A stretch of DNA of 64,000 nt from Ruditapes philippinarum (GCF_026571515.1 NW_026856433.1:1-64000); one strand, 5' to 3'. Positions 3,362-60,454 are shown, counted from the stretch's first letter. The notes: a model not told the origin generated them from the sequence alone. A program made the numbers and translations.

Positions 3362-5083
3362 ATGTGGAGAAATAAACGGAAATTTATCATAAATCATATC
3401 AAGAAAGAACGGAAAGATATTTCCAAATGGTTCCTTATCCCAGGAAGCGTCCTGTGCGGAATTTCTATATTAATGTCTGTCCTGGCCGTCTCTTTACCGT
3501 ACTGGGTTAGCGTAAACGATGTGATGGAGACCACCGTCGCCGGACTGACGGATGACACGGATGTGACGTATTTTTACGGGTTGCTAAGATACTGCTTGAA
3601 GATGAAAGCTACTCATCTTGATACAGATGAATGTAAGGCCAAGGACTACTCGTCGTTAACTGGTAAGTTAAAATTCTGATTCTAGTTCATCGTCATTTTG
3701 CCAGCACATTATGTACGAGTACATGTAGATCTAGTTAATTCCAGTCAGCGTTTGTTCTTTGAAATATAGGCAATGCCGTCATTTTGCCATTTAAGCCGTA
3801 AAACATACTGTTTCAAGTATGTTCAGGTATTTCGGACTGACAATAAACTTTGTCATTGAACGCCGCCTTTCCTTGTTGATCTTGTTTATAATAGTCTTTA
3901 AGACACCTATAGCGCATATCTCCAGAACCACTTTATTATTTTAACCAATGGTCCCAAAATGGGACTCTTGTACCTTGCCCGATTTCAATTTCGTTACATT
4001 CTGCAAAACCGCAGACGCTGACTTTTTTCATTTTTCTTAATTAACATAATAATTTGAATAATTCAGATATCATTATATCTTTTTTCATCAGGTTGGGAAC
4101 AGACGACATTAATTACATTCATTGTTTCTATTGTGCTTAATGCTGTCGCCATCGTGAATGTGATTTTAAATCGCCGATGTTGGAACATGTTATTTCTACT
4201 TATTGGGGCAACACTATTGGCATTGGCCTCAGGTATGAAAGTTTAGTACACAATGTAAATTAGAAACTTCTAAATCTTAAAGCTGCAACATGATAACCCG
4301 TATATATTCTTCTTTTATGTTTCTAACCCATTTCACACAATTATTTATACGACAAAAAATTATTCTAAATTTTACCAAATGAACGGCCAGCTGTGAATGC
4401 GCGAAATCTGTTAAATTGGAATGAATCTTTTGTGTTCAGTTTTCTTAGGAAACTTATTATTTTAGTGTGTTTTGATAGTTTAAAACTCATATCAAGCATA
4501 TGAATACAGCGTGATTTTTAATTTGAAAAAAAATGAAGGACATTTCGCCGATTACAGCTTTTAATTTTTTATGTAAATATTCTGGACAGGTGCTTGTCAA
4601 GCAGTCGGGGTGTCACTGTACCAGATCAAAGCTTCCGTCCTTGTCCTAGACATTGGTGGATTAACTACGGCAAATTTCAAACCAGAATTTTTCGGTGCAG
4701 CATTCTGGTTCGCGTTCCTCAGTGCTGTAGGCTCTATGACGGCTGGTCTGCTCCTGATGTTAGGAACATTTACATGGAAGAGGCCAAAAATAATGCGCAA
4801 GGTACATTATAAATCTGTCATTTTTTGACTTTGGGTAGCGTTTGCAAATTGACTTCAGACGTATACATATCTCCAATTTATTGGCAAAATTGAACATATA
4901 GAGCTAGCGGTATACAATATGTTGATACAATTTTAGGTTGACTGTTCTGAAAAAGAGTTAAACTTTAAACTAAAATCATGCTATATATTTCTATTACAGA
5001 ACATGTACAAGACAACAGTTCGAGCTCCAGTCTGTCCGTACAAAGGCCGCCGTCCAGCTCTAATATCTATAACCAACATGTGA
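3362..5083 (+). CDS. Claudin/PMP22/EMP/MP20-superfamily tetraspan membrane protein (~245 aa), paralog 1
   Basis: Exons 3362-3662, 4092-4232, 4590-4801, 5000-5083 join in frame at GT-AG sites (phases 1,1,0). Four hydrophobic segments, and the extracellular-loop-1 signature LPYW...YFYGLLRYC...C (W-GLW-C-C type). If the last intron is retained the frame stops at 4828 (226 aa). Confidence 0.85.
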
Positions 5084-5900: not shown

Positions 5901-6684
5901 TTAATATAACACAAGTTTCAATAATGGAAATTTGATTGAAACAGTTTTATTAGTTTCGTAAAACTATTTTATGAAAAAATACATTTGCGGTATCTTTTCA
6001 TTTTGAAACAAATGTTATTGGTACATGTAATTATTATTTACTGCTCACTTTCTTTGTCTGATTAAGATATGCAGATGTCTTGATAAATAAAAACTTTCCA
6101 ACAATTTTCAGTCAAGTCTTTTTTCTCTCTAAATTCATAAATACATAACCTATCGAACTTTGTATATTTTACAAAATTAGCTAATAAGTGAATGACGTTT
6201 TATTTTTCCAATCGAATGCACAATTTTAGTTGATACATATAGACTGTATTGCGTGTGGATTTCTTATTAATAATAATAATTGTTCAGTTTGGTAAAGCTT
6301 TGTATAGTTTGTTGCACAATTCATAGTGAAATATCTTAACAAACATCGGCGGGATAAAGCACGTGGGATTTAATTGGTAGGAGTGGTTCTGAATATGCGC
6401 TTTTCCCGCCCAATTAATATTTATTTTTCCGCTATAACTGTTTTAATATAACACTCGAAAGAAAATTATCAATAAAATTTCAACAAACCGAGCCTTTAAA
6501 CTTTAAGTTTTCACATAATTATTTATAATTACACAAACGTAAATCGAGCGTTATTATATTTATTGGGAATGTCTCTAGTTGGGTGTATACACTTCTCATT
6601 GTTCAAATACTTTCTTGACAGAATCAATCAAGAAGCAAACAAGTTCGATTGTCCACAGTATATCAGATTTCATGTTAGTGAAAT

Positions 6685-6891
6685 GAGCCGCGTCACGGCA
6701 AAACCAACATAGTGCGTTTGCGACCAGCATGGATCCAGACCAGCCTGCGCATCCGCGCAGTCTGATCAGGATCCATGTTGTTCGCTAACCAATCCTATTA
6801 CAAGTAGAGAAACTGATAGCGAACAGCATGGATCCTGATCAGACTGCGCGGATGCGCAGGCTGGTCTGGATCCATGCTGGTCGCAAACGCA

Positions 6892-6930
<39 letters not shown>

Positions 6931-6958: not shown

Positions 6959-7268
6959 AAATCATCCAATAAAATATCGTGTTATTATGATGGAAGATGT
7001 ATACTTGTAGCATAGGAACGCGGTATTCAAAATATTTTATTTTTTGTATTTTCTTTCTTTATTTGTTAGTGTAAAAAATGAAATTATCTCTGAATTGATT
7101 TGAACTTGAAAAGATAAGATTTTACATACGTGAAAAAAGACTTAATTTTGATTTTTATAGAAAATAACCGAAAGCTCGACATAAATAAGGTTATTTTTAA
7201 TACGATATTGGATATCAAAGGCTGCTTGAAATAAGAGAGTGAATGTCTGTTTAACACGTAGTTTCATT

Positions 7269-8165
7269 ATGCCCCTTGTGGACAAGTCAAATACGTATAC
7301 TGGGGTCGGAGTCGGGGCCTCTGGTGTAGGTAGTTTGGTTTCGATCCTGGCGTTTGCGCTTCCATATTGGATTTATTACGATGAGGACCTAACTCTCACT
7401 GACGGAACCGGAAGTCATCAAGTTCAGTGGACGTACTATTATGGTTTCTGGAAATTCTGTAATAAAGTGTCGTCTGATGTGTCGAACTCAGATAGATGTG
7501 GAAGTGTCGAGTCACATTCAGGTATCAACGTGTTTATTAACATGTTTATAAATACGTCTACATTTTCTAATATGTCTAACTAGAATAAAGGTGATTAAAA
7601 GCATAATGAAATGCAAAACTGCATATAGTAGAAATTTTAGTGATGGGGAAAATTTTCAAAATAAGTAAACGTCTATGGTTACCAAGTACTGTAATAGTAA
7701 ACGTAATGCAATGAAGTCAAATAGCATTAGAGCCCTTCCTATAGTTTGTTTTTGAGCCTACCGTTGTAGCTCGGTGCCATACTGTTTATTTCAATGCTTA
7801 GTAGCTTATTTCGTTTTTTTTGTTGTTGATTCTTTGGGGGGATGGGGGTGTGGGGGGTCTCCAGTCAATATAATTGTATCCCTTAACTGAATATTACTCA
7901 TCGTCTCTTAGTATAATAAATACCGATTTTTTTTTCTTTTTCAAGTATCGCGCTTGACAAAGAACAAAATTCTGAAAAAGAACAAAATTAGATCTTCTTG
8001 AAAATTGCTTAATTATTTCAGATGTTGAGCAGACAACAGCATGTCTTCTGCTACTTGCCATTCTATTATTTGTAAGCGGTGTTGCTAATGGTTGCCTGTA
8101 CCTGACCATATTTAAGAAAGAAAAGCTATGTCTCTACATAACTTGGATATCTGTGGTAGCAGCGG
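7269..8165 (+). CDS. Claudin/PMP22-superfamily membrane protein, paralog 2 (exons 1-2 only; 3' exons not resolvable)
   Basis: Exons 7269-7521 and 8022-8165 have the same phase-1 intron positions as paralog 1. Motif LPYW...YYYGFWKFC...C; exon 2 starts DVEQTT versus GWEQTT in paralog 1. Confidence 0.8.
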
Positions 8166-9246
8166 GTAAGATCATTGCCTTTACCCTTTTCACCATTTTC
8201 GTTTAAAATAAATAGATTCAAGACGATAATGTCACAAGTGACATATATGAAAGTTTAAGATAGGGTCGCACTGATCAATATAAAAAAAAATCAGAAAGTC
8301 ATTTACAATGACAAAGTGATCCTTCATTCATAGTCAGAAAGCATGCCGACTTATAATCTAGGCAAACAGCTACTTGATTCAATGCCTTTTTTAAGAGTCA
8401 TGTTGAAATGAAACACGTTGAAGATACTTTTTAGTCAATATGCCCGAGTCCTGGCCCATGCATGTCTACCTGTCAACAAATAATTCACGAGTTCGAGCCA
8501 AATACAGGTCAATACCTCGCCTAGCTTATGTGATACTAGTTTTGGTTAGTTTAGGAAGCGGATTCGAAAAGGTTACAGTTATGTCATTCGGGCTATATAA
8601 ATACAACTTTGAAATTTAACCAACTCTTTAAATTAATTAACGCTTAATCTATGTACAAACCCTTAATCTATATACATGTACGGACAAGATTTTAACTAGA
8701 ATGAAAGGATACATTGTATATGTATGTATGCATTCCAGATGAAATTATATTTTAATTTGGAGATTTTTTTATATTATTTTCATTGAATGGTAATTATTAA
8801 AAAGTATTAATTTTATGAGGTGAACGCCCAGTGAAATGTTGAAAGTTTATAAAATCCGAAATTATTCATTTGTGATAAACATCGTCTTTATTGGTTTCGT
8901 CCGTGATTGTTAGATTTGAAATAAAGTTATTGGCTTTTAAGTACCATTCAGATAGTGTACCAATAAACTGGAGTGACTTACATAATAAAACCGACCTTTT
9001 GATCATTAAATTAATATTCAACTCAAGAGAACATATTAAAATATTAAAGAAGGCAAAGGTATAAAGTTTTAACACCTAAAATATACAAGATAATCTGAAA
9101 ATTGCTAAAACTGAAATTACAAAACAATACTTTGCACCCCACCCCACCACATAGCCTCCTCCCAAAGTATAGAGCTGGACCAGTGCAGAGTATCTGTGGA
9201 GTCTAACTAGACTTATACACTGTACTTTGATAAACATCTTAAAAAT

Positions 9247-19513: not shown

Positions 19514-19552
19514 CAATCGCAACTACTCGGCCCTTTCCGCCAGTCTTCGGAT
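19514..19552. mobile_element. Left arm of the MITE family also found at 27560-27661
   Basis: CAATCGCAACTACTCGGCCCTTTCCG matches that element's TIR. Confidence 0.6.
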
Positions 19553-20933: not shown

Positions 20934-23799
20934 ATGTCGAAACAAGACGACGAGAACGCGACGGTGAAACTGGAAGAACAAAAGCGGAAATATATCAGTG
21001 TTTTAAATGGTTGCTTTGGATATGTTGTATATCGGTTGGTTTACTTGCGTGTTGGGTAGGAAAAGTACAGTACTATGCTGTCGGAAATACTAACGATGGT
21101 AGTGACAATATTCATAGAGACAGTAGATATAGGAGTTTTAAAGCATTTGACCAAGATCGTGATGGTTTTATTTCGGAGCCGGAGTTTGAACAAATCCATC
21201 GTCGCTTGATTAACACTCAACCAGAGGAGAGGTCTCAAATTGTAAGAAAAAGTTTCGTTATGAAGTTATTAATCAAGTTATGTTAAATAAGTAGGTAAAA
21301 AAATTACTACCTATTCTATTTATTTTATTTGGGAATATCTTGACTCATTTTGTTATTGAGAAATATTAGTATCAGAGAGGAATAAGTATAATATGATTAA
21401 CAAGTAAAGGGAAGTAACAGAATCGCCAGTTTGAAATATTACTGAAAGAGTTATCTTTTCTTGATACCAGCGATGAAAGGGCTCTGGCAAAAAAAAAGAA
21501 AAAAAGGAAGAAATCTTTTCGTTTATTTTCCACAAAAAAGACCCTTTAAAGATGGATTTAGGAAAAAAAATCTAAAATAGTAGGAACATTTTATCATTCA
21601 ATTTCAATGCATCCAGATTTGGCTACCTATCTGTTTAGATAATTAGTTGATTTAAAAATACATTTAAAAAAGTAGCTATATTTATAATCATTCTTTTATG
21701 ATTTCTAAGGCATCAAGAGTTGAAATGTTTTGTCTTTTGTAAAATAACAACAAAATAAATTTTCCATATATATGCATGTCTTTTAAAGGTGTTAGATGAA
21801 TTAAAACGTATTGAAGAGGAACAAGGAAAACTCCACGACCTTATAAATGATCTACAGTTAAAACTTACAGGTTTGTTAGATCTTAGAAAAAATTTAGTTA
21901 TAGTTAATAAAAAGTTTTATTATATTATATAATATTTATACCTCTTACTTGCGCAGCAATTCTTTTCATAACTAGTGCAAAATGATTTAATAATACATGC
22001 CGTCTTTTCCAGTCGCTTAAAATGCAGTTTGCTATATAAATAGTGATGACATTATGAAAGAACGACTCCAGTTCGACATTGACCGCAACATTTTGTCGTC
22101 GTGTTATTGGGGTGCCATGGCACAACAAACACCACAGCGGCAATACGGTGGCACCATGGCGAAGCATCAAGCGGCGCCAGAACGCCTAACTGTGTCGTTA
22201 TGGTGCCCTATTTTTGGCTACAAACAAATATATGATTTCAGACTCCGAGTTGGCTCAATGGGGACCCTGGAGCACGTGGAGCGACTGTTACATGAGTTGC
22301 ACTGGTAAACATGGTGGTCGTTTACAGAATCGTTCAAGGGAGACAAAATCAAAGTCGGTCGTACAGGGTCATCAAAAAGAGACTGAGGAACGCCCATGCA
22401 ATGCTGTACAATTCGCAGGTTGGTTATTATATTACACATGTAATTGTTTATGGAATATTATTACTAACAGTATAAACACTTCCCATTCATTTAATCATTT
22501 TTTAAATATATTTTTTCCATTAGTATTAAATATATATTCAGAATCTGAATATACGGACACTGCTAACAAAATGAAGCCGTCGCAGAAGTTACATTCCTAG
22601 TAGAAACTATTTTAGCAAGTTCTTGTAGTATATACATAACTCGCTTTTAAACACAAGTGAGTTAATGACCAAAATACGGGATTAAAGTGCAAATTTTAAA
22701 ACTTAATTTAATCACTTTAAAGACTTATGTCTAGATATATGTGATGGTGACATATTAAAAACTAGGTCGTGATCTCAACATGGCTCGAACTCACGATCCC
22801 TTGGTTGAAAGGATAATACTTTAGACGTGTGCCACCTCTCCCCTCTCTTTTAACAGCCGCTTAAATTTAGAAAAATTTAAAAATATTTTTTAATCTTATA
22901 GGTTGCATTAAAAGTTATGGAACAGATGATAATTTTGGTGTAAACTACGACTTCGCCGATCAAATGGCAGTTGCCACGTGCACCGCCCTTGCAGTAGACG
23001 GCTATATCCACGCTGTTAGACGGAGGTGCTCTTCGCTGTCGGTCTCGTGCGCGGAGACGTGTAAGCAAATAGGGTAAACACTGAAACTACTGAATTATAT
23101 GTTAAAGGAAATCTACATCATAATATATAACTCAATAATGTATAAAAACATGGGTCACAGGGACAATGTCATGATTCCCTAAATGTAAATAACGATTGGT
23201 CAATACTTTCTAAATTATGACCCAAACACAATTGTTAAAATCATTTTGATTTGAAAGCTGCTTACTAGTATTTATGAAATTTTGTTGGCGATAAAATGAG
23301 GTTTATATTATACATTTTTACTGCAATACTGATTTCTATTTGACTTGTACGCAGCTGTTAAATCTGTAGCGCCTCGTCCAATATAGGTTTTGCAGCTTCA
23401 ATGAAAACGAGGTTAGATGGAGTACAATAAGTATATGATACAGATCGGACATGAAAACGTAGAAGTAATTCTAAAGCAGTAACCATATTATTACCACACT
23501 GATTCATTTCTTTGGATTTACAGGCACCAATTAGTTCTAGTATATTTATTTTTATATATTTTCACCTTTAACATGCAGTTAACATTTTTATGCAGCATTA
23601 CTGTGATATTTGTTTTTTATGCATGCATACTTGTATTTGTTTCAGTGGAACATGTTTCAATTCTCTACACATTTATAGAGGGTCACAAGTTTTGCTGAGA
23701 GACGTTCACGGTTCTAAGGGATTATATGCTTACAAGTACAACGCTTGTGGTGGTGGATGTGGTCCAAACTTTTGTTGTTGTCGGTCTTTAAAACCTTAA
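20934..23799 (+). pseudogene. Gene A copy 1: TM-EF-hand-coiled coil-TSP1-Cys-rich head protein, frameshifted in exon 1
   Basis: Exons 20934-21241, 21789-21870, 22242-22418, 22902-23073, 23646-23799 have intact GT-AG sites. A 13-bp deletion (TTAATACTGAAAA) relative to copy 2 after codon 15 gives a stop after ~41 codons. Exons 2-5 remain open. Confidence 0.75.
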
Positions 23800-23963: not shown

Positions 23964-24135
23964 NNNNNNNNNNNNNNNNNNNNNNNNNNNNNNNNNNNNN
24001 NNNNNNNNNNNNNNNNNNNNNNNNNNNNNNNNNNNNNNNNNNNNNNNNNNNNNNNNNNNNNNNNNNNNNNNNNNNNNNNNNNNNNNNNNNNNNNNNNNNN
24101 NNNNNNNNNNNNNNNNNNNNNNNNNNNNNNNNNNN
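23964..24135. other. Assembly gap (172 N)
   Basis: Run of N. Confidence 1.
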
Positions 24136-24627
24136 GAAAAAGTAATCGCTGTTGAAAATTGAAACACGTGTCTGTTAATCAAAATAATTGTAAATTGTAC
24201 TACGATAATAACAAAGAGACATACCTTTTATCGTAAAAGTGGCACAGGCCAACCAAACCTTAACGTAAAGAAAGGCAAGATTTACAAATAAAAAGTAACA
24301 TGTGACAATACTGAGGAACGATAATTAATGGCGTTTTTTTATTATCAATACATGATCAAGCGTGGGTATTTATGTCTTAAGGCCTTAACTGACGGTAGGA
24401 TTTAGAGGTAAAACACCAATTAAAACTTGTATAATTCCAAAAGACAATAATGTTCAGCGTATTCATGTCTGATAAAAATATCAACTTCCCTTGAACACTT
24501 TAACACTTCTGATTAAAGTGATGAGCATAATGTTACCAGAACATAGTCAGACCAACCTGCAAAATGGAAGCTAATTAAGTGAATTAAAGAAATTCTGCAG
24601 GTTAAGGGTTTACCAATAAAGCAACAC

Positions 24628-26212
24628 CTTTTATTGTTTTCTCTGATTCATCTAGGCGCTTTTGTGTGACAGCTCTTTCAGCTTCAGTATGTTCTTGCAA
24701 CTCTTGGGCTTCCACAAGCATGTCTTCCAGCTGAATTATGCGCATGCTCAGTGACTCCACTGTCTGATTCATGTCCGTCTGTAACACCGTTGTGTAATAA
24801 AAATATGAAAGATCATACTAGTGCATTAATGTTTTCATTGATGACAAAATGATATAAAATGATGTAAAAATGATACACTGTAATCGGAATAGTAAACCAT
24901 AGTGTGACATTTTTTTGTGAGAATAAAAACCAAACTTGAATGATGATTTAACATATTTAACCCACAGGTGCTTGTAACAAACTTTACCTGTGATTTAACC
25001 TGTATCACGCCCGAGAACTTTGCAATTTTGAATTTGGAACAAACGGTAGTACTATAATGTACTATAAAATAAACATTTTACATGAATGAGCAAAGATCGC
25101 CTACTAGTTGTGATTATGTGAAGGACGCTGACCTTTTTAAACTACATGTAACGATATAAACTAATAATCATTATAATATGGATGTAATATCAAGTAGGAA
25201 ATCATATACAAATGCTGTTTAAATATGGGCCGATTGACCTTTACCATGATACACAGGACACTAGATAGATAGATACGTATTTCACAAACACACCTGTGGG
25301 GGGGGGGGGCGTCCGTGGCCGAGTGGTTAAGATCGTTGACTTCAAACCACTTGCCCCTCACCGCTGTGGCTTCGAATCCCGACAGGGACTTTGGATTCTT
25401 TCATGTGATGAAGCTATCCAGCTAGCTTACGGAACGTCGGTGGTTCTACTCAGGTGCCCGTTCGTGCCTGAAATAATGCATGGAAGGGCACCTGAGGCCT
25501 TCCTCCACCAGTAAAGCTGGAACGTCGCGATATGACCTATACTGTGTCGATGTGACGTAGTGACGTACCCCCCCCCCCCCCCCCCCCCCCAAAAAAAAGC
25601 AAAAACACAAACACACCATATCTTGTTTTAGATGTGATTTATATTCCTCCAGTTCTCCCATTCGTAACTCTACACTCATTTGTCGTCTGCTGAGCCGCCA
25701 TTTTTCCCGCTTCAACGTGTCTGTGAGGTCTCGTGCAGTTTCGAGGTTCTCTTTCAGTTTTTCGTATAAACTTCCTTCTCCTTTTGACGCTTCTCCATTC
25801 TGCAGTAAACTTCATATTTAGATACAATGATAAAATTCTTATTCAATTCATTCTTGACATCATACTCTGGTTTAGCTACGTCAACGCTGTACATAGCACA
25901 TTTTTCTTTAGAGCGTTTTGTTTATTATATGTATGTACATGTATAACCTATCCAATCTCATTAAAATGTAGCTTTTTAATATAAAATAATTGTAAGCTAT
26001 CAGGCGCTTACACTTTAAAAACTAACAGCAGCAGCACTATTACGCCAAGTCATAGTGAAAAGCACGAAAAATACGTGCACAAATGTTATAAATTTTGACA
26101 AAAAAAGAAAAAGCGTGTCTTTCATCTATATGTTTAAGACAAACGGACAAATTATCTAAGCTGTCAACAAGTTCCTCGGCGGTGTCGACCAAAGCTATCG
26201 ACTTCTTGTGAC
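24628..26212 (-). pseudogene. Gene B copy 1: coiled-coil protein, 5'-truncated
   Basis: Exon 2 (25799-25617) and exon 3 (24778-24628) are near-identical to copy 2. The exon 1 remnant (~26212-26117) has lost its start to a MITE and its donor site to a deletion. Exon 4 is absent or lies in the gap. Confidence 0.75.
25295..25605 (+). mobile_element. Full-length tRNA-derived SINE (Meta-domain-like, bivalve type) with 12-bp TSD
   Basis: A box TGGCCGAGTGG, B-box-like GCTTCGAATCCC, central GAAGCTATCCAGCTAGCTTACGGAACGTCGGTGG domain. TSD CACAAACACACC (25283-25294 and 25606-25617). Absent at the paralogous site near 40045. Confidence 0.85.
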
Positions 26213-26224
26213 TAAGGACTGAAA

Positions 26225-26435
26225 AAACCAACGTAATACGTTTGCGACCAGCATGGATCCAGACCAGCCTGTGCAGTCTGATCAGGATCCATGCTGTTCG
26301 CTTACAAACCCTATAACAAGTAGAGAAACTGATAGCGAACAGCATGGATCCTGATCAGACTGCGCGGAGGCGCAGGCTGGTCTGGATCCATGCTGGTCGC
26401 AAACCCATTATGTTGGTTTTGTCGTGACGCGGCTC
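26225..26435. mobile_element. Sola-type palindromic MITE, left end truncated
   Basis: Same family as 6685-6958; ends CGCGGCTC|ATAT. Confidence 0.85.
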
Positions 26436-27559
26436 ATATTATTATCCTGATACAAGAGTGTTTCATCTGAAATAAGATTGTTGAATTGTTATATCATACA
26501 TGTATATAAAATGATTTGTTTAATAAAAGGCCCTAGTAATATTGTACATGCTAAAGGCAAAACAAAGTGTAATTTGTTTGTTGTTTATTTTTTAATGGTT
26601 ATAAGTGAATTATTTCACCTTGGTTACATGTATATTAGTTTGCGTTATTATTTCTGACTGGTAATCAGATTGTTAATGCCTTTAAAAGGTTGGCCTAACT
26701 GAGATTAGACTTGTGGGGGGATGTTCATATGGTAGTTCATAAACTTCTTCAATAGGAGCATGATGACCAAGACGTGTCATATAATTGTGTTATAATTGGG
26801 AAGTTGGTGAACAATAAGATAATTGAATGATTTTAATTACTTAGGCATGACTTATACAAAATAATGTTAGTATATATGTTTCAAGCTACTCTCCCACACA
26901 AAACGGGTCTAAAACATAATTCATTCTTCAAATTAGACATCATTATAACGTTTATATATTTGGTAAGATATGCGTATAAATATTTTTTCATCGAAAAGTA
27001 TAGTAGTTCAGTATTATCACATTTATACTTAATAAGAATCTATACAAGAGGGATATCTTTATTCTGTGTAACAAACAACATTGAATATCAAATTTGATCA
27101 ACTTTTCAACCATATTTATTATTCTTATTAGGCCAACGCTTTTATTTTATTCAAATTACGGGTTTTTATATAAAGTTACCAGTATTAACATTCTATTTTA
27201 TTTTTCCAACAGCAGTCATTATCTATACTTTTAATCCTAACGAATCAACATTCCTAACCCCCCCCCCCCCACTTTGTCATTATTATAATACACGTTTAAT
27301 ATAAATAATCTAACAATACCCCCTTGTCGTATTCTTATCCCCTATATGTTATAAAACTTAAAGTTTAAAGTTTCAAGGAAGTTTAAAGAAATGCATATAC
27401 ATGGTAAGGGTTATTTTACACGTTTTCATCATTTATACCATTAAATCTGCTGTGTTCGTCAGACAATATACATTAAATTGCGTAGTTACAAATTTCATTC
27501 ATTTGATACCACTTTTCACGCATGTGATAACCAGATTTCATTCATAACATACATTTGAC

Positions 27560-27661
27560 CAATCGTAACTTCTCGGCCTTTTCCGTCAAACTTCGGAATC
27601 AACTATATTGCGCATTCGGAACTGCCTCGGACTGACGGAAAGGGCCGAGTAGTTGCGATTG
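27560..27661. mobile_element. Short palindromic MITE immediately upstream of the gene A2 ATG
   Basis: CAATCGTAACTTCTCGGCCTTTTCCGTCA ... TGACGGAAAGGGCCGAGTAGTTGCGATTG inverted repeats. Confidence 0.75.
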
Positions 27662-27678: not shown

Positions 27679-30600
27679 ATGTCGAAACAGGAAGACGAGA
27701 ACATGACAGCGAAACTGGAAGAATTAATACTGAAAACAAAAGCGGAAATATATCAGTGTTTTAAATGGTTGCTTTGGATATGTTGTATATCGGTTGGTTT
27801 ACTTGCGTGTTGGGTAGGAAAAGTACAGTACTATGCAGTCGTAAATACTAACGATGGTAGTGACAATATTCATAAGGACAGTAGATATAAGAGTTTTAAA
27901 GCATTTGACCAAGATCGTGATGGTTTTATTTCGGAGCCGGAGTTTGAACAAATCCATAGTCGCTTGATTAACACTCAACCAAAGGTGCTTAAAAACAAAC
28001 TTTTTAAAGTTTTATATGGGCTATATACTATAATAAGATATCTTAATATACATATATAGACGTTTATGTAAAATATTTGATTATGTGACTAGCGCCTGTG
28101 CACTCAACCAGAGGAGAGGTTTCAAATTGTAAGGAAAACAAGTTTTTTTTTGAAGTTATTAATTAAGTTTTGTTAAATTAGCCGGTGAAAAAAAGATACT
28201 ATCTTTTCTAGTTATTCTATTTGTGAATATCTTGACGATGAGAATATTGGTATCCGAGAGGAATACAAGGTTAGCTTTTAAAAAAGCTAGTAGCGACTCG
28301 CTTCGTAATTTCTTTCCAGGGGCGTGTTTAAATGTAAAAATGACAGTTCTGTTAGCTGAAAAGACTTCAGCGAACATCAAAATAAAAGTGACATATAAAG
28401 TTAAGGAAGCCAGTTCTCTCAGTTTAACAAAGAGGAATATGAGTATATATGAAGATGCATGTAAACAGATAGAATGAAGTCCCTATGTCTATGCACATTT
28501 ACTATATGGCCTGTTGACCTTGACCAGAAAAAAATAGATAAGTAGAATTCATAAAAATGTCTCTTTATACGAAGTTAAGTTGTAATATGTTATTTAGTAT
28601 TGGAATAAGTGACAGATACAAGTCAAGTCAAGTAAATTTTATTTACAAGTCGGATACATCAACAATAAACATAAGCTCTGATGAGCTTTTTACACCGACT
28701 TCTATAATAGTTCTAAAGTAAACACAAGTTGTCAATCAATTCAGCCAGAAAAGCCGGGATCCTATTAAAAAAATAGGATCCCGGAAATTGACCAGTTTAA
28801 GAATATAGTTTTCAGAAAAGCCGGGATCATATTAAAAAAATAAAGAGATCCCAGGAATTGGACAGTTCAAGAATATTGTTTTCAGAAAAAGCTGGGATCG
28901 TATTAAAACATATAGGGATCCCGGGATTTGACCAATTCAAGAATATAGTCTTTGATTTTTCCAATTAATTAGGCATATAATTATAAGTATTGTGATTTTG
29001 TTAATAAATAGCTCTAAATATATCTATATCCTAAGTTAAATCAATTTAACTTTCATTACATACAATAAAAAAAAACTTAACGTTTAATGGCCTTTCATTA
29101 CGACTATTATCAACACATATATAGTTTATTAGTATTTTCTTCTATTATCTTATACGATCCCGGATCCCGGGCGTCCCGGATCCCGGCCAGTAAATACATA
29201 CACTATATACCGGAAGGGATGAAATGACCGGAAAAAAAGGAAAAAGAAAAAAATGCACAGAACCAGATGTCGTTCATGTTAATTAACCAAACGAAAACTT
29301 ACTACAAAGTAAACAGGACTGGTGAAATCGCTAAATCAAAAGTCAATGTAAATATGATTTATTGAAAAGAATCCATGAACACAAACATTTTAATCACCAT
29401 TATATCTTTGCGCTCAAAACAATACTTGCTGCTTTTTAAAAATGGCGTGAAAATTGAAGGTTTTTTGACGCTATATAAGATCAAATTTGATTGGCTAAAT
29501 AATTTTGGATCCTAGCCCTGATAGATAAATTTTGTAGAAAGCTGGAAGCAAAGCTTCGATTAAATTTTTGGATGGTTTCGGAGTTTTAGGTTGTTTCTCA
29601 GTAAAATCCTAACGTAATACCGGCTCGCCGTGGCGAGCCGGCACAAGTAAAGGGAAGTAACAGAATCGCCAGTTTGAAATATTACCGAAAGAGTTATCTT
29701 TACTTGATACCAGTGAATGCTCGGTCAATAGGGCTCTGTCAAAAAAAGAAAAAAAAGGAAGAAATCTTTTCGTTTATTTTTCACAAAAAAAACCCTTTAA
29801 AGATGGATTTAGGGAAAAAATCTAAAATAGTAACAGTAGAAACATTTTATCATTCAATTTCAATGCATCCATATTTGGCTACCTATCTGTTTAGATAACT
29901 GGTTGATTTAAATACATTTAAATAAAGTAGCTATATTAAGAATCATTATTTCTAAAGTATTCTTTTTATGATTTCTAAGGCATCAAGAGTTGAAATGTTT
30001 TGTCTTTTGTAAAATAACAACAAAATAAATTTTCCATATACATATGCATGTCTTTTAAAGGTGTCAGATGAATTAAAACGTATTGAAGAGGAACAAGGGA
30101 AACTCCACGCCCTTATAAATGATCTACAGTTAAAACTGACAGGTTTGTGAGATCTTAGAAAACTTAGTTATAGTTAATAAACAGTTTTATTATATTATAT
30201 AATATTTTATACCTTTTCCTTGCGCAGCATTTTTTTTCATAACTAGTGCAAAATGATTTAATAATACATGCCGTCTTTTCCAGTCGCTTAAAATGCAGTT
30301 TGCTATATAAATAGTGATGACATTATGAAAGAACGACTCCAGTTCGACATTGACCGCAACATTTTGTCGTCGTGTTATTGGGGTGCCATGGCACAACAAA
30401 CGCCACAGCGGCAATACGGTGGCACCATGGCGAAGCATCAAGCGGCGCCAGAACGCCTAACTGTGTCGTTATGGTGCCCTATTTTTGGCTACAAACAAAT
30501 ATATGATTTCAGACTCCGAGTTGGCTCAATGGGGACCCTGGAGCACGTGGAGCGACTGTTATATGAATTGCACTGGTAAACACGGTGGTCGTTTACAGAA

Positions 30601-32097
30601 TCGTTCAAGGGAGACAAATTCAAAGTCGGTCGTACAGGGTCATCAAAAAGAGACTGAGGAACGCCCATGCAATGCTGTACAATTCGCAGGTTGGTTATAA
30701 TATTACACATGTAATTGTTTATGGAATATTATCACTAACAGTATAAACACTGCCCATTCATTTAATCATTTTTTAAATATTTTTTTTCCATTAGTATTAA
30801 ATATTTATGACCGGTCAGAATCTGAATAAACGGACACTGCTAACAAAATGAAGCCGTCGCAGAAGTTACATTCCCAGTAAAAACTATTTTAGCAAGTAGT
30901 ACATAATTCGCTTTTCAACACAAGTGAGTTAATGACCAAAATACGGGATTAAAGTGCAAATTTTATAACTTAATTTAATCACTTTTAAAACTGATGTCTA
31001 GATATCTGTGATGGTGACATATTAAAAAGTAGGTCGTGATCTCAACGTGGCTCGAACTCACGATCCTAGCTTGGTTGAAAGATTAATACTTTAAACGTGT
31101 GCCACCCTCCCCTCTCTGTTTACAGCCGCTTCGAATTAGGAGAATTTAAAAGTATTTTGGATTTAGAGTACACCGTTTTTTTTTTAAATCTCATAGGTTG
31201 CATTAAAAGTTATGGAACAGATGATAATTTTGGTGTTAACTACGATTTCGCCGATCAAATGGCAGTTTCCACGTGCACGGCGCTTTCAGATGCCGGCTAT
31301 ATCTACGCTGTTAGACGGAGGTGCTCTTCGCTGTCGGTCTCGTGCGAGGAGACGTGTAAGCAAATAGGGTAAATACTGAAACTACTGAAATATATGTTAA
31401 AGGAAATCTTCACTCAGACATGTATAAAAACATGGATCACAGGGACACAGTCATTGGTCAATACTGTCTCATTTATGGCCCAAGCAAAATTGTTTAACTC
31501 ATTTTGATTCGTCAATTACCCTTGAAAGCTGCTTACTAGTATTTATGAAATTTTGTTGGCGATAAAATGAGGTTTATATTATACATTTTTTACTGCAATA
31601 CTGATTTCTATTTGACGTGTACGCAGCTGTTAAATCTGTAGCGCCTATATAGGTTTTGCAGCTTCACATCGACTTGAAAATGAAAACGAGGTTAGATGGA
31701 GTACAATAAGTATATGATACAGGTCGAACATGAAAACGTAGAAGTAATTCTAAAGCAGTAACCATATTATTACCACACTGATTCATTTCTTCGGATTTAC
31801 AGAAACCAATTAGTTCCAGTATATTCATTTTTATATATTTTCACCTTTAACATGCGGTTAACATTTTTATGCAGCTATGTGATATATATTATATGTGATA
31901 AATATTTGTTTTTTATGCATGCATACATGTATTTTTTCAGTGGAACATGTATCAATTCTCTACACATTTATAGAGGGTCACAAGTTTTGCTGAGAGATGT
32001 TGACGGTTCCAAGGGATTGTATGTCTACAAGTACAACAGTTGTGCCGGTGAATTTTGTGGTCCAAACTTTTGCTGTTGTCGGTCTTCAAAACCTTAA
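27679..32097 (+). CDS. Gene A copy 2: type II membrane protein with EF-hand, coiled coil, thrombospondin type-1 repeat and uncharacterised Cys-rich C-terminal domain (297-309 aa)
   Basis: Exons 27679-27984, [28093-28128], 30061-30142, 30513-30689, 31197-31368, 31941-32097 join in frame. Signal-anchor WLLWICCISVGLLACWVG; EF loop DQDRDGFISEPE; heptads VSDELKRIEEEQGKLHALINDLQLKLT; WGPWSTWSDC...RSR...C; C-terminal ...AVRRRC...C...C...C.NSLHIY...YKYNSC...CGPNFCCC. Exon 1 splicing is inferred. Confidence 0.75.
28266..29642. mobile_element. ~1.4-kb insertion in the first long intron of A2 with a Helitron-like 3' end
   Basis: Absent from the A1 intron. Ends in a perfect 10-bp GC hairpin CCGGCTCGCC-GT-GGCGAGCCGG (29620-29641) followed by CACAAG. 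Possible TC-type 5' end TCTATTATCTTATA at 29141. Confidence 0.6.
28745..28950. repeat. Three ~67-71-bp tandem units, each with an internal GGGATC...GATCCC inverted repeat
   Basis: GC(C/T)GGGATC anchors at 28753, 28820, 28891. Confidence 0.8.
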
Positions 32098-32149
32098 TTG
32101 TTCATTGTCGTATCACAACATTCAAAACATAGCCTTGTAATAGAAAATG

Positions 32150-32415
32150 CAGTATTCCCTTGTGGCTTAGGGCTTATCTTTCAGAGCTGAGGCATCAGAA
32201 TTGCTGTCACCGTTTTCCTCTAAGTGATTATAAGAATCTAAATGGGTTTGAATAACTGGAGTCTATGTATCTCTTACCTCCAGTAGGCAAGGTGGTTTTG
32301 ACCCTTGGTGTTGCTTTAAGTTTGTAACACTGAGGTTAGCCAAAATCAGCTTTCCTTTTTGGGCGCTATATAAATTAAATTGTGTTGGTGCGCCGTAAAG
32401 TCAAACAAAACAAAC
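32150..32415 (+). mobile_element. Decayed SINE downstream of the A2 stop (partly shared with A1)
   Basis: Degenerate A/B boxes and a TTGTGTTGGTGCGCCGTAAA..CAAACAAA tail. Confidence 0.4.
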
Positions 32416-32457
32416 GGAAAATGTACTTTCTTTAGTTAGCCATCATAAGGACAGCGA

Positions 32458-32561
32458 AATGATAAGCATTGATATTTTGTCGATATGATAAGCATTGATA
32501 TTTTGTCGATATGATAAGCATTGATATTTTGTCGATATGATAAGCATTGATATTTTGTCGA
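32458..32561. repeat. 26-bp minisatellite x4 (ATGATAAGCATTGATATTTTGTCGAT)
   Basis: Direct tandem copies. Confidence 0.9.
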
Positions 32562-38490: not shown

Positions 38491-40974
38491 TTATACATAA
38501 GCTATTTCCGTGGTCTCTGTAAACACTGATGAACGCGAGGATTTCGTGCTATTCTGATCCATCGTATTTTCATGACATGCTCTTCCGTTCTCAGTCACTT
38601 CATTTTCTGTTTCAGTTTGTCCGTTCACTTTAGAGTCAGAACTTAAACTTTTAGTAGTTGCCTCTTGTTGTTGTTCATTGTCTTCTTTCTCGCGGATAAG
38701 TTCTTTAAGGCTTTTATTTTCAAGCATGAGAATTTCGATCCTGTCGGTAAGTTCACTATGTTGCCTTTTCAAAACGGAGTCCTTCCTTTCAAGTTTAAGC
38801 AGTCGGATTTCCTCGGTCATCTTCGCCTGTTTGTCTTCCAAATCTGTTCATGAAAAAGGATAATTGAAAACTTATAATCTATCAAATAACTATCTGCTAC
38901 TTAAAAAATAACAAGAAACATGACAATGCCATGAAACCAGGTTTTCAAAAATAGCCACTTCAAGCAGAGACCGCACACTCAGAATGTTTGAGCCAAATCC
39001 ATCAATTAGCACGGAATGTAAAAATGACACGTGCCCAATTCCCCAAATATTTAATATGGTGTAAGAATAAGAAATCATTATAAAAGTCACAGAGAAAATG
39101 ATAATATAATGGTATGAGTAAACTGATAAGCCAAGTCTGTTTCCAAATTATACTTATCAACCACAAACCATTTTACAATTTTACAGTGAATTTAACCAAG
39201 AGCAATCTCAAGCAAGGTCTTCACATAAACCTGCTATATACCAAGTTTGATAACGTCTCTTTCCTATCTTCAGTAATTGACTTTTTTGTATTTTTAATAA
39301 TAGTGACATTAACCTTGACCCTAGGATGTCAAAATACAGTCTCAAAGGAGGTCTCCACGCAAGCTTGCTTTATCCCTAATTTAATAAAAACATGTCATTA
39401 TTGTCTGGGAACCATTTTCAGACAGTTGATGGCGGGGGTCAACCTTGGCCCAATCCCAACTACATATTTAAGAAACATTCAAACTTTTTGACTCGGGGTA
39501 TACTCCAAAATACAACAACACGCATGTCTGGTGTGTAACACTTTCACGATTCTGATTAAAGTGATGGAACCTGCAAAATGGAAGTTTATCAAGTGAATTA
39601 AAGAAATTCTGCAGGTTAAGGGTTAAGCAATAAAGCAACACCTTTTATTGTTTTCTCTGATTCATCTAGGCGCTTTTGTGTGACAGCTCTTTCAGCTTCA
39701 GTATGTTCCTGCAACTCTTGGGCTTCGACAAGCATGTATTCCAGTTGAATTATGCGCATGCTCAGTGACTCCACTGTCTGATTCATGTCCGTCTGTAACA
39801 CCGTTCAAGTAATGATAAAATTATGAAAGAACATATACTACAGAATGACGCTACCAATGGTAAATAGTTTACTTCAAAATTCACTACAATCATTATAACA
39901 TGGATGTTATCTCAAAACAAGTAGGAAATCATTTTTCAATAAGACAATAAGTATATGCCTATTGACCTTTAGACGTACACTTTACAATATATGATGAAAT
40001 ATTTAACAACCAAGAAATTCTCAAGAAAATAAATATGTATTTCAGCAACACACCATATCTTGCTTTAGATGTGACTTATAATCCTCCAGTTCTCCCATTC
40101 GTAACTCTACACTCATTTGTCGTCTGCTGAGCCGCCATTTTTCCCGCTTCAACGTGTCAGTGAGGTCTCGTGCAGTTTCGAGGTTCTCTTTCAGTTTTTC
40201 ATATAAACTTCCTTCTCCTTTTGACGCTTCTCCATTCTGCAGTAAACTTCATATTTAGATACAAAATTCTTATTTAATTCATTCTTGACATAATAATTTG
40301 GTTTAGCAACGTCATTACAAAAAAGTGACGCTGTATTTTCTTTAGAACGTTTTGTTTCTCAACAGGAACGTACATGTATCCATCTGATCTGAATAAGATG
40401 TAGCTTAAATTTAAAAAAACATATCAGACGCTAAAATTTTGATGACAAACGCAGCAGTACCACTAATAGCACCCCAGGGCAAAGTGAAACAATTAAAAAA
40501 AGCACGAAAAATACGTGCGCACACTTATGAACAAAATTAGTTGTATCATAAAAATTTGGACAAAGTGTGATCCCTCGGAAGCATTAATCACAATAAAAAT
40601 TAAATGAATATTGCAGAATCGGTCTAAGTGAGTCTATATACATGAGGGCTTGGAAAGAAAGATACACGAGGGATAATGAAAAAGTGCAACATCCCTCACG
40701 ACCCCAAGCACCGGCTTGAGTGGTACCCAATTTTCAACACTTACATGAAAAAGTGCTGGAATCGATCCCGAAGGACCAGAAAAATATATCAACACTGAAG
40801 TGAAGTACGGGGAAAATTAAAAAATATTTTTACCTGAACATGTCTTTCATCTATATGTTTAAGACAAACGGACAAATTATCTAAGCTGTCCACAAGTTCC
40901 TCGGCCGTGTCGACCAAAGCTATCGACTTCTTGTGGCTGAAAACTGGGTTGATATCCAAGGTCCTTCTTGCCAT
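38491..40974 (-). CDS. Gene B copy 2: uncharacterised coiled-coil protein (275 aa)
   Basis: Exons 40974-40834, 40236-40054, 39792-39642, 38843-38491 join in frame (phases 0,0,1; 828 nt). Start context AAAATGG. E/K/L/R-rich heptads followed by an S/T/E-rich tail. Confidence 0.8.
40560..40740. repeat. Dispersed ~150-180-bp repeat; second copy at ~42690-42840
   Basis: Shared ATAATGAAAAAGTGCAACATCCCTCACG...GAGTGGTAC.CAATTTTCAA. Confidence 0.65.
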
Positions 40975-47711: not shown

Positions 47712-49539
47712 CAAACTGACAAATAATGGCATTTACCTGTGCAGTAAAATCCAAACTTTTCTTTAAAGAAACCAGCAGAATCAAAACTTGTAAAAAACTT
47801 GATAAGATCTGCCAGGTACAGTAGAGTTCATTTTATTTATGATTTCAAATTCTTATATTACATGTAAAAATTGATATTTTAATTTTCAATGCTAGGTTAT
47901 TCATAAACAGTATTTTAATTTAGTGGTTTGAAAAACGGAACGTTGGTAATTAAAATATCAAGAGTTTTGTAACTTTGCCTCAGGTTATAAATTATTAATT
48001 ACAAGTTTTGCATAATAAAATCCTTTGGGGTTTTTTAATTATTTAAACAGTGGGGCCCTTTTAAAGGGAAATTTAAAATTTGATACACAATTTTTTTAAA
48101 AAACAACCAATACAACTTAATGACAGGCTAATTGAGTTTCCCCCTTTTAGAATTTTATTTTGCCACTTAACCATTCAAATTAAATTGAATTAGCCTCTGT
48201 TAGTAACATAAATGTGGGTTCAAGTCAGTCTTGTACAAGAAAAAATTGTAAATTTATACTTGTTTACTTTTTATCATTTCCAAACAATTAAACACATATA
48301 CATGATATCATATATTAGAATATTATGGTTTGAGCCTAAATTTTTATAATACATGCAATTGAATTTCAAGAAAATTGATCCAGAAATAGGTCATGTACTC
48401 ATATATATGCATGTATGTTTTAAAGCTGCATGCCTCCAGATGAGTCAACATGATTCAAGAAAGTCAAACTTGAGAAAAATGTTCTAAGATGTTAAGAATA
48501 GTAAAATGATTCAAGATTCAAGTAATAAATAAAATGTTAGGAGCGATTAATGACTGATTTTGCATTATCTATTAACATAATTCTTTTGCGTGACCAAGAC
48601 AGTAAGGGCTACTTGTGCATATTTTGACCACTTTTGGTAATGTACATGGTAAGTAAGTGTTGTGTGCTATGTGTAAATTACTTTTCTTGAATTATAATAT
48701 CACAATATTTTATTTTTTAAATACTTTTTCAAAATTGTCATTAAAATAAACTGATTATGTCAAATCCTATACTGAAGGAAACAAAATAGATTAAACTGTT
48801 CACCTTCAAGAAATTTGCAGACTATCCATTGATTTTGTGATTGTATATATGTATGTATGAATGAATGTATTAATGTAATTGACTATGTACTTTGTATACG
48901 TCAAAATAAACTTTCTGTTTTGTTCATAAAAATTAGCATGAATATGGAGTGGAGACTTGCTCCTTTAATTATGATACATAGCATTGAAAAGATATTTTGA
49001 AATTATTAATATATTTTCTTTTACCATGACTTTAATAATTATTCATATAAGTATTGGCAAAAAAAATGGATAAACTGTTTTAATTGAGATATTTAGCTTA
49101 TATATTGGCTGCAGTGCCATTTACAAATTCTACAGCATGCCAGTTCTATCTGATCCGGTGGGTGGTAGGGTGAGTAGGGGGGAAGGGTTTTTAAGTGATT
49201 GCTTTTGAAAGAAGAAAAAAAAAATCATTTAATTTGAAAAAGATGAGAAATAACTTTCATACCGTATTTGCTACAATTATTCAGCGACTAGGTAATTTGC
49301 ATTAATTTGTAAAGATATGAATCTTAATATAACCAGTGTTTTGCAATGAGGATATTTGTTTCTTTTGATTAAATAAAGATAATATATAGATCACTGACAT
49401 GTTAGAATGTTCTCACAAGCATACAAAACAAGTAAAATATAAAAAAACAAGGTAAAATATATTTCATATGATATTCATTCACACAAGTCAATGCAGGTTT
49501 GTTTAATATGCTATATATATTTGTGAGTAAATTATACAA

Positions 49540-50190
49540 TGAGTGATATTAGTCATATAACTCACTACTGGAACTCTGTATTTTGTGGGTTAGTTAGATT
49601 GAAATAAATAGTGTTGATCACATACTTCAGTGTAAGATTTTGAACAATGTGTCTCAGTACATATATACAGTGAGTGATATTGGTTATATCCCATTCCATT
49701 TCACTTCTGAAACTCTGTATTTCAGTGTCTGAGAACATTGAATTTAATTCAAGTCTTTACACTTTCATGTAAGATTTTGAATAGTAATGATATTATATAC
49801 AGTGAGTGATATAGGTTATATCTAACTCACTCGTGAAACTTTATATTTCATTCAGTACATTTGAATTAAATCAAGTCTTAACACTTTCATGTAAGATTTT
49901 GAATAGTTATAATATTATATACAGTGAGTGATATAGGTTATATCTAACTCACTCATTGAGTACATTGAAATTAAATGAAGTCCTAACACTTTCATGCAAA
50001 ATTTAAATAATGAGTTATAATATTTGTATATACAGTGAGTGATACAGGCTATATTTCATTCACTTGTGAAACTTTATATTTTATTGAGTACTTTAAAATT
50101 AAATGAAATTCTATCACTTTTATGCAGGATTTTGAATAATGAGTGAGATACAGTGAGTGAGATAAGTTATATCTAACTCACTTGTGAATT
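49540..50190. repeat. Degenerate ~120-bp tandem repeat (5-6 units)
   Basis: Recurring TATACAGTGAGTGATATAGGTTATATCTAACTCACT. Confidence 0.8.
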
Positions 50191-52249
50191 TCATTGATTA
50201 GATTAAAATAAATAGTAATAAAACTTTAGTAAACAATTTTGAGCATTGAGAAATAGCTTCTGACTCTTTGTTGGTGTGAAGTGCTTTAACATAGCAAGTA
50301 TAATGTGCTTATAAGAGTTTAACATTTTAAAACATTTTAATATCAAATAAACTATCACAAATAACAAGACAACCTCGTAATTTTTGGTACTTCAACTAAA
50401 ATCACTTTAGACTATTATATGATAACATATCTAAACTGATAGATTGAATTACTGGGTAACTAGCTCTTAAAAAAGTAAATTGACCATTTTATTAGCTAAA
50501 TGGTTTGATAATTTGATCTTATACTGTGGGCATAATCTGATACATGTATGCTAGGTACATGTACATAATTATAATGAAGGTCATTGAAAACACAACTTAT
50601 ACCGGCAGTTTGGTTTTTGTATTTATTTTCAGGTATCAAATTCAGAAAAAAAGTACATTGTACATCATTGTTACATTATTATTATTTTTATTATTTTTTT
50701 GTAGTTGTTAATCAATCCACCTATAAAAAATATTTAAAAAAAGAGCATGTATTGAAGGTAAAAAATCTTTAGAGCATTTTGCAATGATTGGATTTAATTA
50801 ATATGATTATATGAACACGGGTTTTAAACTCTTGCAGGCAGTTTTATCTTTTACCACTCAATAATGTATTTACTATATCATTTACTTGAAAATTATGATT
50901 ATATTTGTTAATAATCAACTTGACCAAAAGTTTAGTTTTTTAAAGTGGTCTTTAGTTAAATTAACATACATTTAACTTCTGAAATGAACCAGAATCAAAG
51001 ATCTTGGGTTACCTTGCTTATAAATCATGGTTTCTTGTAGTTCAAGAAAATTTCAAAACAATATTGAATACTTTATAACATTTGATTGTATTGTAACAGT
51101 ATTTCTTTTATCCACGCAGTCTCACAAAACTCTAATACTACTGGCTACTTAGTTTTAGTATTTTGATATCAAAGTATCCCTCAGGTTTCATACAGACATC
51201 CAATGCCAAAATTCAAGGACTTTTTAAGCACTATTTAAGCATATATAAACCACTTACTGTTACCTTAAACAAACATTTCATTGATTTTGATACTAAATTG
51301 GATCGTATTTTTTATTTTGTTTCAACTGTTGATTTTTTATCATTTACAAGCATATTTTCAGCAAATTTAAGCACTTTTTAAGCACTTTTCAAGCCAGTAA
51401 TCAAATTCAAGGACTTTTAAGCACTATTTTACATTTTTAAGCACTTTTTAAGACAGAGACTAAAATTTAAGCACTTTTTACCCTATTAGACAATTAGACC
51501 TATGAGTTTAACTGAGGAAAGGGAGATTACTTGTTTAACAGGATAAAAGTGTTAAGTGTCATGACAATGCTCTTAACTGAAGTTTACATTTCAAACTTAC
51601 TGACAATGGTTAATTGGACCGTTTACAGCTATGGAAAAGGGAGATAATTAGGGAACTTGCGCGAATGATAAATATATTCAGATAAACCTTAGAATTATGT
51701 CACAACTTAAGTCTCTCAGAGACTAATCTGAAAATCAAAGACCATTAAATATTACACAAATATAACATTGTCATGTTAAGTTGAAGCCAGTTAGCATATA
51801 TATTTAAACATCTTTCAGTGTACTTAACTTTGAGGGACTCTTGATTACAAAGAAACCATGAAATAGTGAGAAACCAGAAAAAAAATACACTTCATGCATA
51901 AAAATGAAATAAAGTTTCAAATTTCCATGTTTTATAGATCTGTCTTCAACCATTTAATGATCTACACGTGCACTTTGACAAATGTTTTATAACATCATTA
52001 CATCATATAACTCCAAAATGTCAAGTTGACATAGAAATGAGAGGACATAATTATTTGGAGTTCATCGTCAGTAAATTATTGCTTTAAGATTCTCATGATT
52101 AGGCAGGGGTATCATACATTTACACACATATATTTTGCTTTGGTCTCACCGATAATTTTGACAGCTTCGGTATCAACACCAGAGTAAAGCTTCATATCTT
52201 ACAGCTTGAATAAGAAGCCCCAAGGTAGCTGGATGACGTTCTAAGATAG

Positions 52250-57629: not shown

Positions 57630-57800
57630 ACATCCGCGCAGTCTGATCAGGATCCATGCTGTTCGCTTACAAACCCTATAACAAGTAGAGAAACTGATAG
57701 CGAACAGCATGGATCCTGATCAGACTGCGCGGATGCGCAGGCTGGTCTGGATCCATGCTGGTCGCAAACCCATTATGTTGGTTTTGTCATGACGCGGCTC
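57630..57800. mobile_element. Sola-type MITE, 5'-truncated; further partial copy at 58463-58631 and corrupted copy at ~56048-56240
   Basis: Sequence matches the 6685-6958 family. Confidence 0.85.
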
Positions 57801-60219: not shown

Positions 60220-60454
60220 GAGCCGCGTCACGGCAAAACCAACATAATGGGTTTGCGACCAGCATGGATCCAGACCAGCCTGCGCATTTGCGCAGTCCGA
60301 TCAGGATCCATGCTGTTTGCTTACAAACCCTATAACAAGTAGAGAAACTGATAGCAAACAGCATGGATCCTGATCAGACTGCGCGGATGCGCAGGCTGGT
60401 CTGGATCTATGCTGGTCGCTAACCCATTATGTTGGTTTTGTCGTGATGCGGCTC
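60220..60454. mobile_element. Sola-type MITE, full length
   Basis: GAGCCGCG...CGGCTC with TSD ATTT on both sides. Confidence 0.9.

Follow-up and report, generated by a model that had tools for sequence, protein, structure and literature searches.

A candidate chimeric gene of the Manila clam with a myticusin-like head behind a predicted membrane anchor and EF-hand

A 64,000-nucleotide (nt) stretch from the Manila clam, Ruditapes philippinarum (GCF_026571515.1 NW_026856433.1:1-64000, here called the window), contains at positions 27679–32097 a five-exon gene, copy B of a pair, which we consider, with a probability of about 0.5, to be a young chimera: a foreign first exon, recently joined, would tether the protein to a membrane; its head is predicted to bind microbes, and its EF-hand is probably a passenger. 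The locus is a genuine gene whose 5′ end has been altered; it belongs to an unnamed family of secreted proteins, and its product is classed as a myticusin-domain protein, not as a myticusin, a scavenger receptor or SELENON. Of greater interest than the chimera is how widely the myticusin domain occurs: it is a mobile module, present in at least 337 sequence clusters, and has neither a Pfam model nor a clear solved fold.

Gene model and protein architecture

The exons of copy B are as follows.

27679..27984, plus strand: exon 1, with the ATG, a predicted type II anchor (amino acids (aa) 30–47) and a single EF-hand (loop 27907–27942)
30061..30142, plus strand: exon 2, coiled-coil stalk, phase 0-1
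30513..30689, plus strand: exon 3, degenerate TSP1-like repeat, phase 1-1
31197..31368, plus strand: exon 4, first half of the myticusin-like head
31941..32097, plus strand: exon 5, second half of the head, ending in CGPNFCCC and the stop codon

Splicing of these exons, which an initial annotation had drawn from the DNA alone, gives one open frame of 297 aa with no stop; all borders are GT..AG and the phases run 0/1/1/2. A RefSeq model recovered by a search with exon 5, XP_060591676.1 (Ruditapes philippinarum, annotated uncharacterized), is identical to this frame, in agreement with the annotated exons. Most parts of the protein (P0001) were likewise borne out. Its sole hydrophobic stretch peaks at 2.04 in the 19-residue Kyte-Doolittle window at aa 31–49, and hydropathy together with the flanking charges (+2 and −1) fits the single N-proximal type II anchor that had been proposed. 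The one EF loop per chain (aa 77–88) carries the canonical D1, D3, D5, G6, I8, S9 and E12 of a 12-residue loop, and exon 1 alone scores 27.7 bits against Pfam EF-hand_5 (PF13202), above the cut-off of 25.9. The heptad stalk has hydrophobic residues at 8 of 12 a/d positions and forms a helix (aa 86–131) in the predicted model of the protein. All 11 cysteines are present in head exons 4–5 of both copies; ten constitute the family core, which C190 precedes. The TSP1 repeat on a symmetrical exon stood only in part: phase 1-1 and a WxxWxxW motif are present, but the repeat is degenerate, with C145, C149 and C182 in the exon and C190 just after it instead of the six cysteines of a TSP1 repeat, and its Pfam scores lie below the cut-offs (21.9 of 41 and 18.6 of 21.6 bits). 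In a Foldseek search TSR domains led the list, weakly (E 0.17–0.42, probability at most 0.84). A Pfam scan of the 297-aa protein gave no SRCR, C-type lectin or C1q match, and a collagen segment is absent.

The head matches myticusin-1

A full-text search with the terminal motif led to two reviews, both of which print the sequence of myticusin-1, so that the head, taken for an unnamed ‘CGPNFCCC’ domain in the initial annotation, has a named relative, as judged by eye from ten cysteines and shared motifs. Myticusin-1, whose precursor PMC10639161 lists as AFJ04410.1, is a peptide from the haemolymph of Mytilus coruscus (Liao et al. 2013, as cited in PMC5484132, PMC5856950 and PMC10608444). According to the passages available of two reviews it is active mainly against Gram-positive bacteria, with a minimal inhibitory concentration under 5 µM on Gram-positive strains (PMC5856950, PMC5484132). 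In a table row of a 2023 review (PMC10608444), known antimicrobial peptides are said to include no homologs of the myticusins, and the parts of the myticusin literature at hand describe no wider domain family. Literature searches by gene or protein identifiers returned no paper, and none was found for CGPN in a bivalve context.

Set beside each other by eye, myticusin-1 and the clam head have ten cysteines in the same order at about 30% identity. Their cysteine spacings, 17,6,4,22,31,5,5,1,1 (by eye) and 16,7,4,7,31,5,5,1,1, respectively, both fall within the range of the family, and the motifs AxxxC, AxxRxC, CxxxC, CxNxxHxY and CGPNFCCC are common to the two. Eight of the ten near-invariant residues other than cysteine also match by eye (A211, A226, R229, H254, Y256, G286, P287 and N288), G271 having no counterpart in myticusin-1 and Y277 being shifted. 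The clam head and myticusin-1 are bridged by P0156, which the clam head profile finds at E 2.1e-12: it is 33% identical to P0001 over 98 columns and, by eye, about 45% identical to myticusin-1.

A widespread C-terminal domain

Searched at E ≤ 0.001, a profile built from ten head sequences recovered 337 clusters, the best 150 of which were listed. The taxonomic range and partner domains that were to be charted with the head alone have thus been mapped in part, and the spread is wide. Heads are carried by bivalves, a brachiopod, a copepod, amphioxus, a sponge, a cryptist and scattered bacteria; among 20 members looked up, Dreissena, Lingula, Neocalanus, Branchiostoma, Oscarella and Goniomonas were named. 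From a one-pattern scan covering 185,579 prokaryote genomes came 12 loci, including representatives of Myxococcota, Entotheonella, Parabeggiatoa, Sulfitobacter and Roseibium. No relatives of the head occurred in viral contigs or phage records. Pfam, NCBIfam and PDB sequences gave no match to it, PHROGs gave nothing convincing, and no full-length match to a characterised family was found that would contradict the novelty of the architecture.

The last head lies at most 15 aa from the C-terminus in 148 of the 158 head proteins compared. A hydrophobic start is present in 101 of them, two or more heads in 13, and an EF loop pattern in two, both of which are models from the window. Anchored heads without an EF-hand occur in other animals (P0066, P0112, P0131). 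Lectin, collagen, protease, fibrinogen or TSP1 partners were found by Pfam in 9 of 147 proteins, most having no Pfam match; the partners include collagen, coiled coils, C1q with H-lectin, DUF3011, trypsin and a MAT_N-like start. The last was seen in five bacterial carriers (4 of 16 and 1 of 6), which score against Bdello_MAT_N at their N-terminus with E 7e-9 to 1.5e-4 and 21.6–35.7 bits, all below the 60-bit cut-off.

Two or three tandem heads are present in P0013–P0020, P0027 and P0028, P0014 being from the flagellate Goniomonas avonlea. Single-domain members of 112–140 aa occur in clams and bacteria. Stand-alone secreted heads of 131–140 aa are found in three Entotheonella genomes, in Parabeggiatoa and in a Thiotrichales genome, and in two Neomegalonema genomes (L010:352-1287, L012:3377-4321) the head stands behind lectin_2/DUF3011-like domains, as also noted for P0108.

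L005:1527-1934, L007:3887-4294, L008:3863-4270, L001:3911-4333 and L006:3896-4291: stand-alone bacterial heads

The predicted model of a single-domain clam paralogue (P0033, mean pLDDT 89.3) consists of a helix, a strand, a helix and three strands, and the same elements appear in the predicted head of P0001, whose model is unreliable at aa 49–75, a region covered by two sequences. Cysteines 249 and 280 are lost together in 16 of the 17 domains losing either, 231 and 285 in 4 of 4, and 215 and 291 in 1 of 2, in counts whose rows are not independent; a disulfide from helix 1 to the last strand is suggested by one co-loss only. Foldseek searches with the head gave no match at E ≤ 0.001, the top four rows being C-type lectin (CTL) or link folds at weak scores (E 1.5–3.1, TM 0.23–0.30). 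In a structure scan of 48,161 chains the best Z was 3.2 and none reached 5, nor did any in a second look at 127 chains; the best CTL row aligned with Z 2.9 and a root-mean-square deviation of 3.3 over 45 residues. A clear PDB fold match to the modelled head is therefore lacking, which is no proof of a new fold.

As a tentative generalisation, which we regard as possible though doubtful, the myticusin domain may be a cross-kingdom module for grasping microbes, with a new fold or that of a far-diverged C-type lectin. It would serve as a fibre tip in Myxococcota, as a triple head in a bacteria-eating flagellate and as a free peptide or stalked opsonin in invertebrates, and would have become a membrane receptor with a calcium-binding loop in the Manila clam by exon capture. 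The target of myticusin becomes testable in this light, as a binding site is indicated by the conserved residues together with the tip position and small single-domain members exist.

The first exon as a derived state

A search with the clam sequence returned eight matches outside the window, including proteins of Ruditapes, Mercenaria, Mactra and Mya and two Logan proteins. All eight consist of a signal-like peptide start, a coiled coil, a TSP1-like repeat (absent in one) and a head, and all eight are devoid of the anchor and the EF-hand. Their heads are 55–71% identical to the clam head. The unnamed secreted bivalve proteins LOC132744478, LOC128545909, LOC123547182, LOC128211896, LOC127879222 and ACF0H5_011326 have the coiled coil, the TSP1-like repeat and the head in the same order as the clam gene; they start with a signal-like peptide, in most cases followed by an EPxC motif, and lack both the internal anchor and the EF-hand. 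A tree of 36 chosen head rows groups the window pair with seven secreted forms (94/88 support), and the exon encoding the anchor and EF-hand therefore represents a derived state. That the nearest relatives carry a signal peptide where the clam gene has this exon lends weight to the exon shuffling proposed earlier.

Exon 1 itself occurs in none of the relatives outside the window. A word-indexed search among proteins of 180–2000 aa gave 18 candidates with only P0001 among them as a relative; the Atlas held no usable match and the JGI metagenomes held none, PDB sequences gave generic EF-hands only, and the window contains no trace of a signal-peptide exon of the kind seen in the secreted relatives.

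The initial annotation had proposed an oligomeric receptor whose lone EF-hands pair across chains and let calcium tune recognition. In favour of this model, the canonical EF loop immediately precedes a coiled coil through which copies would be brought together, and two precedents are available: in human SEPN1, a type II protein, a single luminal EF-hand controls the oligomer state (PMC7474598, in the portion available), and mytimycin precursors provide an example of an EF-hand gained by an antimicrobial peptide of a bivalve (PMC8004829, likewise in part). By analogy, these cases suggest that the idea is possible, not that it applies to the clam gene. The family, however, works without an EF loop (present in 2 of 158 head proteins), the loop is out of frame in one of the two window copies, and a parallel coiled coil would in any case keep the chains associated; we consider pairing in trans improbable. 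The view of the EF-hand as a conserved working part finds no backing in these data, exon 1 showing no selection signal (p = 0.6). Since the rest of the family does without it, one copy has it out of frame and no such signal is seen, the EF-hand is probably a passenger.

Two copies, both damaged at exon 1

A second copy and two features near the start of copy B bear on the state of the first exon.

20934..23799, plus strand: copy A, with exons 20934–21241, 21789–21870, 22242–22418, 22902–23073 and 23646–23799
27982..28100, no strand: 119-nt insertion in copy B, between 10-nt direct repeats at 27972–27981 and 28101–28110
27560..27661, no strand: 102-nt element bounded by 29-nt terminal inverted repeats; the ATG of copy B lies 17 nt downstream of it

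Neither copy has an undamaged exon 1. In copy A this exon has lost 13 nt, and the frame shifts after the ATG common to both; the RefSeq model of this copy, XP_060591681.1, begins from a different upstream piece. The frameshift means that the whole architecture is not kept in both copies. In copy B the donor of the model is a non-consensus GTGCTT inside the 119-nt insertion, while the donor common to copy A persists at 28129, where splicing would lead to an in-frame stop. Selection is evident downstream: the ratio of non-synonymous to synonymous changes between the copies (pN/pS) is 0.38 for exons 2–5 (p = 0.008). Exon 1 differs by two synonymous and four non-synonymous changes, with no measurable selection.

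Introns 2–4 differ by 2–7% between the copies, and an N gap (23964–24135) and a partial duplicate of the next gene separate them; the copies may therefore be tandem paralogues or uncollapsed alleles. The duplicate (24554–26221 and 39568–40946, 81–94% identity, exons of a minus-strand coiled-coil gene) sits between the copies and behind the N gap; it bears on whether copy A is an allele. Since the copies may be alleles, retention of the architecture in both was rejected as evidence of conservation. The 102-nt element appears to be of the miniature inverted-repeat transposable element (MITE) kind, and one of its arms recurs upstream of copy A (19526–19539). An intron 1 stretch of about 1.4 kb (28266–29642), with three 70-nt repeats at 28746–28959, is missing in copy A.

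Transcript evidence

Four sequencing runs were compared over 29850–32500, a range that takes in the end of intron 1 and exons 2–5. None of the listed sequence records containing the stretch is registered as RNA, which says nothing about expression. Exons 2–5 are spliced in two studies: the joins 2–3, 3–4 and 4–5 are seen in contigs of two of the four runs, X1 and X3, with depths of 54 and 131. The joints read GT..AG, save for one differing letter at the last joint of X1. The RNA status of both runs is a tool's guess, though introns are removed.

X3 record 7 resembles copy B (four differences in about 840 letters). Its fit to the genome starts at 30057, with four letters equal to those that close exon 1 (at 27984), and it continues for 299 letters upstream, compared with 302 remaining in the coding part of exon 1. 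The word share of X3 is 0.26, where 0.125 is expected from exons 2–5 alone and 0.185 with exon 1. The EF-hand exon is thus likely joined to exon 2 in some alleles. X1 represents a third variant, in which 16 of the 30 listed differences equal copy A, 74 further rows lying beyond those 30. Of the transcript linking the EF-hand exon to the TSP1 and head exons that the initial annotation had called for, joins 2–5 were recovered, and the join of exons 1 and 2 is supported indirectly.

29320..29347, plus strand: 3′ end of a different upstream exon that one X1 contig joins to exon 2, with a GTAAAT donor at 29348

This alternative exon falls within the stretch that copy A lacks. Behind the stop codon, a repeat at 32238–32430 draws most RNA reads of runs X21 and X23; because these lie on both strands and have loose ends, it is a dispersed transcribed repeat.

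Proposed origin and mechanism

The ancestor would have been a secreted protein whose signal-peptide exon ended in phase 0; in its place, we infer, came a phase-0 5′ exon from a type II membrane EF-hand protein with a SELENON-like plan. The anchor would insert with the N-terminus inside and the C-terminus outside. The result would be a type II membrane protein, its myticusin-like heads displayed on a coiled coil and a TSP1 spacer. The stalk may bundle several heads, probably three. Each head is presumably locked by the disulfides C249–C280 and C231–C285, as the cysteine co-losses suggest, and would bind a microbial surface ligand through conserved R229, H254, Y256, Y277 and N288. Binding to microbial surfaces is likely in view of the myticusin-1 match and the tip position, and the same two observations back the immune or recognition role in the ‘Ca2+-tuned recognition’ suggested earlier; the calcium tuning is unsupported. 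The lone EF-hand would face the lumen or the cell exterior; with the high calcium there, its loop would be largely filled, which makes a switch function unlikely.

Several observations weigh against this origin and function. The myticusin match was made by eye at about 30% identity and carries no score, and the activity of myticusin-1 is taken from reviews (PMC5856950, PMC5484132, in the passages available). Myticusin transcripts also rise on injury without a pathogen, according to the part available of PMC6401078. The protein, Atlas and JGI searches did not find a donor gene for exon 1. The exon 1–2 join has no direct contig, and the four-letter fit of X3 record 7 overlaps the usual exon-end consensus. 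One X1 contig joins exon 2 to the exon ending at 29347 and another is unspliced through the intron, and in raw RNA reads of X21 and X23 (4–6% of each run) exon depth is 0–3 with no joint. Finally, a frameshifted copy A and a copy B that relies on a weak donor inside an insertion are what a decaying gene would display.

The last points fit a locus in decay, in which the anchor/EF-hand exon is a stray 5′ fragment beside a myticusin-domain gene that lacks its first exon, any fusion being weakly transcribed or limited to some alleles and yielding no useful protein. The alternative and unspliced forms upstream of exon 2, the near-zero exon coverage in the two raw RNA runs, the missing selection signal on exon 1 and the local segmental duplication with its assembly gap are all in line with such decay. 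Copy B, however, is open over 297 codons and is fitted by the X3 contig, contigs reach the depths given above in two studies, exons 2–5 are under constraint, and the anchor and EF loop are intact in both copies, so that we hold decay to be rather unlikely. We rate still lower, as very improbable, that a real chimera works in adhesion, wound repair or shell matrix by binding the clam's own glycans through the tryptophan ladder of the TSP1 repeat and the head. A TSP1-like repeat and a coiled coil are present, as this would require, and myticusin-alpha transcripts are reported to increase after injury in the absence of infection (PMC6401078), as well as in mantle when acidification is combined with shell damage (PMC10639161). 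Yet the sole characterised member is reported to be antimicrobial, and animals without shells, a flagellate and bacteria carry the head as well. If the exon 1 join is true, the young chimera that we favour is a possible receptor in the making, its alleles or copies caught at different stages.

Other features of the window

Apart from the locus, the window holds the following.

3347–4828 and 7230–8206, plus strand: exons of a tandem pair of claudin/PMP22-like genes (PF13903 at E 0.034 and 2.3e-5; neither reaches the cut-off)
6670–6894, 26220–26450, 57631–57805, 58454–58631, 60213–60465 and 61549–61831: six copies of a palindromic MITE-like element of about 170–280 nt
233–1500 and 49526–50227: degenerate tandem repeat arrays

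Comparison with known systems

Myticusin-1 is a free haemolymph peptide of 104 aa. The clam domain instead forms the end of a 297-aa protein that also has an anchor, an EF-hand, a coiled coil and a TSP1-like repeat, and the domain is devoid of the 15-residue insert that myticusin-1 bears between cysteines 4 and 5; a multidomain protein with a predicted anchor is not the free secreted peptide of about 104 aa by which a myticusin is defined. In SELENON, too, a type II anchor is followed by one luminal EF-hand, the first aspartate of which is residue 80 in the human protein (PMC7474598, portion available) and residue 77 in the clam. The clam protein lacks the thioredoxin-like selenocysteine domain of SELENON, and the likeness is one of layout, with no sequence homology shown. 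Among bacteria, the mosaic adhesive trimer (MAT) fibres of Bdellovibrio bear adhesive tips, as stated in the part available of PMC10769870. In the bacterial carriers the head lies at the C-terminal end, the place of the MAT tips, a likeness that concerns these bacterial relatives and not the clam protein. Class A scavenger receptors and collectins follow a plan of anchor, stalk and C-terminal head. By sequence the clam protein has no collagen segment and no SRCR, CTLD or C1q head, but it shares with them a predicted type II anchor, a coiled-coil stalk and a cysteine-rich head at its C-terminus.

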